DNA from: Escherichia coli
Lineage (GTDB): Bacteria > Pseudomonadota > Gammaproteobacteria > Enterobacterales > Enterobacteriaceae
Direction: 5' to 3' (one strand)
NCBI RefSeq assembly: GCF_003334785.1
Contig: NZ_QOWV01000005.1
DNA length: 64,000 bases
A program made the position numbers and the translations under genes. Below, in pieces: positions 63,187-64,000 of this stretch; the stretch's first letter is position 1; each line of letters opens with the position of its first letter. The notes under the pieces are model-generated. The model made no database searches, had not been told where the DNA came from, and saw only the letters and a list, made by a program, of their open reading frames with translations.

Positions 63187-63260
63187 GCGGGCGTAGTTCA
63201 ATGGTAGAACGAGAGCTTCCCAAGCTCTATACGAGGGTTCGATTCCCTTCGCCCGCTCCA
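63187..63260 (+). tRNA. glyU: tRNA-Gly (anticodon CCC), 74 nt
   Basis: GCGGGCGTAGTTCAATGGTAGAACGAGAGCTTCCCAAGCTCTATACGAGGGTTCGATTCCCTTCGCCCGCTCCA: cloverleaf with encoded CCA end; anticodon loop CUUCCCAAG. Confidence 0.95.
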
Positions 63261-63416
63261 ATTTATCTTCGCCGTAATACTTCCCCATTTTGTTGTAAAT
63301 AAAAAGCGTTTACGCAATGCAATCCTTTTGTAACAACCCAGGTAAAACACCTTATTTTCAAGTTGTTAAATAAGTGGTTATCTACGCTTTTAACAAACGA
63401 TTGATGGAATATTTTA

Positions 63417-64000
63417 TGAAAGGGAAATCTGCATTAACTCTTCTGCTCGCTGGTATATTTTCGTGCGGCACATGCCAGGCGACAGGGGCAGAAGTGACGA
63501 GTGAATCTGTATTTAACATTCTTAATTCCACGGGGGCAGCAACAGATAAAAGTTATTTATCGTTAAATCCAGATAAGTATCCTAATTATCGTCTTCTGAT
63601 TCACTCAGCCAAATTACAAAATGAAATAAAGAGCCACTATACCAAAGACGAAATTCAAGGATTGCTAACATTAACAGAAAACACACGAAAGTTAACGTTG
63701 ACGGAGAAACCCTGGGGAACGTTTATTCTTGCTTCTACTTTCGAAGATGACAAAACAGCGGCAGAAACCCACTATGATGCTGTCTGGTTGAGGGATAGTT
63801 TATGGGGCTATATGGCATTAGTATCAGATCAGGGAAATAGTGTAGCCGCAAAAAAGGTTCTGCTCACCCTGTGGGATTATATGTCTACGCCCGACCAGAT
63901 TAAGCGGATGCAGGACGTCATTAGCAACCCAAAACGACTGGATGGAATTCCCGTGCAAATGAATGCTGTGCATATCCGATTTGACAGCAACTCCCCCGTG
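63417..64000 (+). CDS. secreted protein with glucoamylase (GH15)-like N-terminal region; partial, continues beyond window end
   Basis: ATG at 63417 gives MKGKSALTLLLAGIFSCGTCQATGAEV... (Sec signal peptide) and a WLRDSLWGY segment resembling the GH15 W-x-R-D substrate-binding motif. Absent from ORF track because no stop lies within the window. Possibly corresponds to ygeQ of K-12 (uncertain). Confidence 0.5.

Follow-up and report, generated by a model that had tools for sequence, protein, structure and literature searches.

The glyU-proximal edge of the ETT2 island in Escherichia coli, with ygeQ as a remnant of pkgA, the gene for a predicted GH15-type protein

[quoted passage not shown] Its essentials are already known, since the location of ETT2 beside glyU, the attrition of the island in K-12 and the description of pkgA as a glucoamylase-like gene have all been published, and what the present analysis adds are the junctions at base level (63324/63325), the absence of a repeated tRNA end, and the order in which the two lesions of the K-12 ygeQ gene arose. 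For annotation, the core genome ends at 63324 and the remaining 676 bp of the window are the start of an ETT2 remnant, at a locus that represents a textbook decay, in a laboratory strain, of a horizontally acquired virulence-type island.

The transition between core and island can be followed through these features (window coordinates):

63142..63169, + strand: sigma-70-like site, TTGCTA and TATAAT separated by 16 nt, a possible glyU promoter; 10 of 12 positions match, and it ends 17 nt before glyU.
63187..63260, + strand: glyU, tRNA-Gly with anticodon CCC, detected by ARAGORN, annotated as tRNA-Gly by RefSeq in every genome examined, and invariant in 4 strains.
63268..63269, no strand: point of a 78-bp deletion in the K-12 lineage, just 3' of glyU, seen when K-12 is aligned to O157, P27 and the empty-site strain.
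63324..63325, no strand: left junction of ETT2, core ...GCAATGCAATC / CTTTTGTAAC... island; the empty site of FDAARGOS_536 agrees as far as here and goes on as yqeG-proximal sequence.
63325..64000, + strand: first 676 bp of the ETT2 remnant, with a G+C content of 41.3% against 51.5% for the rest of the window.

The tRNA gene is the only one that ARAGORN finds across the whole 64-kb window. The segment from 63100 to 64000 (901 bases compared) has 100% identity with E. coli K-12 MG1655 and strains derived from it and, as a query, has matches in 5413 of 5426 complete E. coli genomes, with at least 80% of its length covered in 3874. In K-12, read in the orientation of the window, xdhCBA, actS (ygeR) and the tRNA-Gly gene are followed by ygeQ (264 aa), a 92-aa 'hypothetical protein', IS2 and a partial orgA, and beyond the latter by several pseudogenes, ygeI, ygeH, ygeG, yqeK, yqeJ, yqeI, yqeH and then yqeG. 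FDAARGOS_536 has an empty site at this place, with yqeG directly after glyU. Alignment with the empty site puts the right junction of the island between yqeH and yqeG; the left junction is separated from the tRNA by 64 bp in K-12 and by 142 bp in other strains, and this intervening core sequence is also present at the empty site. From 63325 onward the window is accessory DNA. The initial annotation had suspected an island boundary at glyU, and both the empty site and the composition bear it out: past glyU, the G+C content falls from about 50% to 36%, with 36.4% for the K-12 island (11,669 bp; 34.3% without IS2) between flanks of 50.2% and 48.6%, and with 36.7% for the part of ETT2 examined in O157.

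The gene content identifies the island. In O157:H7, the glyU flank carries a frameshifted gene annotated as 'glycoside hydrolase family 15 protein', a toxin gene of the GhoT/OrtT family and a complete SPI-1-like T3SS gene set (annotated as sctC, sctV-type, sctN, sctR/S/T/U, prgH-type and others), of which K-12 keeps degenerate remnants alone (partial orgA, ygeH/HilA-type, ygeG and others). The type III secretion island that the initial annotation gave as reported for the glyU flank of some lineages is the ETT2 cluster, complete in O157:H7 and degenerate in K-12. ETT2 is described as an island of 29.9 kb and 36.9% G+C adjacent to glyU (PMC3977695, PMC11068852, PMC2808357), and the locus at hand agrees with it in position (between glyU and yqeG), flanking genes, composition (a low G+C content against about 50.8% for the chromosome) and gene set (SPI-1-like eiv, epa and epr genes), the K-12 arrangement corresponding to the known degenerate form and nothing being different in kind. 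In our reading, the core genome (xdhABC, actS/ygeR, glyU) stops 64 bp past the tRNA, and the low-G+C DNA from 63325 on is a horizontal acquisition. Published views differ on the empty B2-type site, which is taken as ancestral following Ren et al. (PMC7058095) or as the outcome of a loss by clean deletion, since E. albertii has ETT2 at glyU (PMC4700944).

Within ETT2, we also noted that the GhoT/OrtT-family small toxin gene of O157:H7 (locus extract 22067-22246; ECs3735, ydcX-like) lies between pkgA and eivF and was lost from K-12 via the IS2-linked deletion, and that P27 (locus extract 8005-8137) and NCTC9087 (4611-4743) represent a common ETT2 deletion type, in which eivF-eivI are missing and the end of pkgA is followed almost at once by what is left of the eivJ/spaN-type gene.

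Two other accounts of the boundary have to be weighed against an ETT2 edge that merely adjoins the tRNA. To the view that the open reading frame is a core enteric gene and that no island is present we give practically no credence. Some part of the gene is retained in 3987 of the 5426 complete E. coli genomes (at least 80% of it in 2969), but it is wholly absent from about 1400; moreover, yqeG comes directly after glyU in the empty-site strain, G+C stands at 36%, and T3SS genes follow the open reading frame. The sequence beyond 64000, which could have held conserved core genes, turned out to be island, and the O157 T3SS cluster, the FDAARGOS_536 empty site and the G+C content refute the core-gene reading. 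The other account, which we consider rather unlikely, holds that a tyrosine integrase put ETT2 into the 3' end of glyU and that the integrase and the att repeats were lost later. It has in its favour the adjacency to a tRNA combined with a sharp drop in G+C, and the fact that glyU is a true integrase target elsewhere: in E. coli 3CM (NZ_CM137008.1, locus extract 183-25000), a ~25-kb element encoding a site-specific integrase, a recombinase, an AIPR-family gene, aac(3)-IId, mph(A)-mrx(A)-mphR(A) and TEM-1, together with three IS26 copies, sits immediately after the terminal CTCCA of glyU, where it replaces the pkgA-eivJ part of ETT2. This resistance element and ETT2 have glyU as a common landmark, but the former starts exactly at the 3' end of the tRNA and brings an integrase, whereas ETT2 starts 64-142 bp further on, without integrase or repeats. 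No integrase is annotated in the ETT2 of K-12 or O157. A search of the K-12, O157 and 3CM loci for direct repeats of 10-25 nt from the 3' end of glyU, on both strands, found none; no second copy of at least 12 nt lies in the whole K-12 island or in the O157 locus short of the island's far end. Two of the features for which the initial annotation had suggested looking, integrase genes and a direct repeat of the tRNA end, are accordingly not seen here. The insertion point is downstream of the tRNA gene and not inside it, past core sequence that the empty site shares, and the two ends of the island have in common a mere imperfect similarity of 7-8 nt (TGCAATC and TGCGAATC). Because there is neither an integrase nor a flanking repeat of the tRNA end, the boundary is that of an island, yet not of a classical, integrase-made tRNA insertion; ETT2 would simply adjoin glyU, with no sign of integrase-mediated insertion into the tRNA. 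For the 3CM element, no second copy of the tRNA end was found within 49 kb either, and its integrase is rare, with at least 80% coverage in 24 of the 5426 genomes.

Closer to the tRNA, the 78 bp missing from the K-12 lineage (TCACCTCATC...TTTTCGCAA) are present directly 3' of glyU in other E. coli, including the empty-site strain. The deletion, whose position is ambiguous by ~2 nt (20169/20170 in the K-12 locus extract), is common to K-12 and NCTC9087, and a terminator scan of the glyU-ygeQ interval in K-12 and O157 detected no terminator-like hairpin, with or without the 78 bp. In E. coli G8 (NZ_CP060057.1, 970575-972251), IS1A interrupts a glyU-ygeQ stretch that is otherwise 100% identical to K-12, and represents another independent IS hit in the same short region. 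On the other side of the tRNA gene, one sigma-70-like site was found where 0.7 are expected from shuffles; by position alone, it is suggestive of a glyU promoter. The site is conserved in O157. Further upstream, at 56000-56400 of the window, the G+C content dips to 0.36 in the intergenic region between ygeW and ygeV, upstream of the latter, a sigma-54 activator gene.

The gene beside glyU is listed as ECs3736/pkgA (= b2863, 'phosphorylase kinase and glucoamylase'), together with ECs3737 (= b2862) (PMC3977695, Table 1); pkgA is also known as EC042_3075, and the gene lies at the end of ETT2. Within the window, the following parts of it are seen:

63416..64000, + strand: ygeQ (b2863), codons 1-195, the 5' part of the pkgA pseudogene, with its ATG at 63416 and a frame open to 64000.
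63416..63481, + strand: putative export signal, residues 1-22, from sequence features; it reads as a Sec signal peptide with cleavage after C-Q-A or, alternatively, as a lipoprotein signal whose cysteine is Cys17 (63464-63466).
63785..63799, + strand: W124-L-R126-D127-S128 (residues 124-128), the GH15 substrate-binding motif, of which W124, R126 and D127 are invariant in 37 members.

The frame, which the initial annotation had described as truncated after some 190 codons, is thus cut by the end of the window and not by a stop, and reaches codon 264 in K-12 and codon 536 in intact alleles. Relative to the intact 1611-bp gene of P27, the DNA of K-12 ygeQ is gapless and collinear, with 98.3% identity over the first 1137 bp, beyond which K-12 has the end of IS2 and then homology that resumes inside orgA; measured over ygeQ and b2862 together, intact alleles are 98% identical to K-12 at the DNA level over 1154 bp. 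At codon 265, K-12 reads TGA in place of the GGA of the intact allele, and b2862, the 92-aa 'hypothetical protein', is the continuing frame of pkgA after ygeQ. While the K-12 copy carries the nonsense codon 265 and has lost its last 474 bp, the O157 copy is frameshifted instead. The 264-aa protein of NCTC9087 is identical to that of K-12, and the 78-bp deletion is present there too, yet this strain retains the full-length DNA of the gene, followed by epa genes; because the truncated protein and the full-length gene DNA occur together in this strain, the nonsense mutation is older than the IS2-linked deletion. K-12 ygeQ is a pseudogene fragment of pkgA and is best annotated as such, not as a K-12 enzyme. 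The change from GGA to TGA halts translation three codons before the presumed catalytic glutamate, Glu268, and a later, IS2-associated deletion took the last 474 bp of pkgA and all ETT2 genes up to orgA.

Intact PkgA, whose 536-aa sequence represents a cluster of 13,903 member sequences, is related to GH15 only distantly at the sequence level. When the full-length protein is searched, the GH15 family of Pfam (PF00723) gives a weak match over residues 94-416 (i-E=2.5e-4, 20.5 bits), against E=1.2e-3 for the K-12 fragment, and it matches 20 of 37 diverse PkgA relatives at E<=1e-3 (best 2.7e-7) with no competing family. In NCBIfam, neither intact PkgA nor K-12 YgeQ nor the b2862 fragment scored above a cut-off (TIGR01577 reached 15 bits, its cut-off being 821). 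Among all PDB sequences, the PkgA family profile picks out no proteins other than phosphorylase kinase alpha (2e-7) and beta (3e-5), through their GH15-like domains, and neither single-sequence nor profile searches of these sequences retrieved a glucoamylase, even at E<=10. The relationship is clearer at the level of the fold: an AlphaFold2 model built from the 37-sequence alignment (mean pLDDT 90.8, pTM 0.90, with low pLDDT at residues 1-23) compares as follows with solved structures (PDB entry, comparison score):

'GH15-related' glycosidase: 5Z3A, 29.9
Phosphorylase kinase alpha / beta: 8JFK, 28.1 / 27.9
Dextran dextrinase: 9JU0, 26.2
Bacterial glucoamylase: 1LF6, 25.1
A. niger glucoamylase: 3EQA, 23.8
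Glucodextranase: 1ULV, 23.1
Yeast glucoamylase: 1AYX, 22.4

The model argues strongly that PkgA has an (alpha/alpha)6-barrel catalytic domain most similar to GH15 structures. For the comparison of individual residues, the catalytic domain of A. niger glucoamylase (the same sequence as PDB 3EQA chain A for residues 1-442) served as the reference. With hhalign, W124/R126/D127 fall on W52/R54/D55 of this enzyme and W267/E268/E269 on W178/E179/E180, at E=0.009 for PkgA against the single glucoamylase, and in a profile alignment (local E=6e-5) R394/D398/Y400/W406 fall on R305/D309/Y311/W317. An assignment of R353/D356 to glucoamylase R305/D309 was dropped, as the alignment favours R394/D398. In glucoamylase, E179 is the general acid and E400 the general base, the latter preceding the last beta-hairpin and helix of the structure. 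In the PkgA model, E491 stands just before the last beta-hairpin and helix; hhalign pairs it with E400 in one narrow-window run only (E=0.068) and places it in another register otherwise. The residues W124/R126/D127, W267/E268/E269 and R394/D398/Y400/W406 are all invariant in the 37-member alignment, as is E491 (37/37). The W-E-E general-acid motif is absent from the K-12 product, where the stop at codon 265 removes everything from the catalytic acid onward.

PkgA nevertheless stands apart from the families that it resembles. It has only 12-20% identity to GH15 enzymes (glucoamylase, glucodextranase, isomaltose glucohydrolase and dextran dextrinase) and, unlike them, carries an extra N-terminal region of ~95 residues, while a starch-binding domain or a GH15 N-domain is not seen. 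Phosphorylase kinase alpha and beta (8JFK), for their part, are eukaryotic, cytosolic and non-secreted subunits of a 1.3-MDa kinase, and have W-E-R where PkgA has W-E-E. Taken from alignments and the model, PkgA would be a distant yet genuine GH15-type enzyme with an apparently complete catalytic machinery. The GH15-like character that the initial annotation had read from the W-x-R-D-S motif, here W-L-R-D-S at 124-128, finds support in the fold, the catalytic motifs, the weak Pfam match and the RefSeq naming. In the mechanism that we envisage, the intact protein of 536 aa, for which the model and the alignment show a GH15-type (alpha/alpha)6 barrel with conserved motifs, would most likely act as an inverting exo-glycosidase on an alpha-glucoside, a substrate extrapolated from GH15; Glu268 of W-E-E would be the general acid, Arg126/Asp127 together with Arg394/Asp398/Tyr400/Trp406 would bind the sugar, and Glu491 is probably the general base.

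The N-terminus of PkgA, MKGKSALTLLLAGIFSCGTCQA, combines two lysines, a hydrophobic core of 12 residues, a C-Q-A site and a lipobox-like G-I-F-S-C17, so that the signal peptide recognised in the initial annotation, with its basic n-region, hydrophobic core and cleavage or lipobox site, is upheld as a prediction. The E. albertii protein reads V-L-A-C17 at the corresponding place, and a comparable hydrophobic N-terminus or lipobox, canonical in several cases, is found in most Gram-negative relatives; the members from Clostridiales and Bifidobacterium are without it. Intact PkgA would then be exported via Sec, a route that we infer, and be either soluble in the periplasm or lipid-anchored at Cys17. 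Together with the intact catalytic motifs and the T3SS-free homologues described below, these features point to a periplasmic glycosidase as the probable role of intact PkgA.

Against a dead gene that once encoded an exported glycosidase stand two proposals that would give the protein a different function. In the one, the 264-aa YgeQ of K-12 is itself functional as a shortened protein, for example as a non-catalytic, carbohydrate-binding protein of the periplasm. RefSeq does annotate it as a protein ('protein YgeQ') and not as a pseudogene, and it keeps the export signal and the W-x-R-D motif; however, the stop lies mid-barrel, directly before the invariant W267-E268-E269, more than half of the (alpha/alpha)6 helices are lost, the downstream frame is still readable as pkgA, as is typical of a recent nonsense mutation, and the same lineage lost the 3' end to IS2 without apparent constraint. 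We regard a functional YgeQ as very unlikely. A full-text literature search for 'ygeQ' found no functional study. The other proposal goes back to a speculation of Pallen (2003), cited by PMC3977695 and PMC2808357: the T3SS of ETT2 would inject PkgA as an effector, a glucoamylase or phosphorylase-kinase mimic that interferes with the glycogen metabolism of the host. The gene does lie at one end of ETT2, the closest solved relatives by sequence are the GH15-like domains of eukaryotic phosphorylase kinase alpha and beta, and a homologue in Y. enterocolitica is encoded ~10 kb from a T3SS tip-complex gene. Yet the Sec/lipoprotein-like N-terminus is not one carried by T3SS effectors, close relatives that keep these invariant residues are found in Commensalibacter, Elusimicrobiota, Bdellovibrionales, Clostridiales and Bifidobacterium, no T3SS gene is nearby in three of the four homologue contexts examined, and pkgA is intact where apparatus genes of ETT2 are deleted or frameshifted, e.g., in P27. 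Because of the putative export signal, the T3SS-free homologues and the intact catalytic motifs, a role as an effector against host glycogen appears decidedly unlikely.

Homologues that are 40-60% identical to PkgA are spread widely among bacteria (taxa assigned partly by source name), and the T3SS-free contexts, at 40-50% identity, are those of Commensalibacter, where the gene is found beside GH32 and EamA genes, of Bifidobacterium and of one further contig. A broader proposal, which we advance tentatively and at slightly less than even odds, is that PkgA founds a scattered, multi-phylum clade of GH15-like glycosidases, catalytically competent, exported to the periplasm or lipid-anchored in Gram-negatives, and with a substrate specificity new to GH15, whose members would be the nearest bacterial kin of the regulatory GH15-like domains of eukaryotic phosphorylase kinase alpha and beta, with PkgA itself not an ETT2 effector.

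In Y. enterocolitica (GCA_046763825.1, locus extract 1-21581), the pkgA homologue, with 60% identity, lies in a patchy region together with an invasin-like gene, a fragment of a Tn3 transposase, two large proteins that match nothing in Pfam, and a sigma-54 activator accompanied by a methylmalonyl-CoA mutase operon, the T3SS tip-complex gene at ~10 kb being a member of PF06511.
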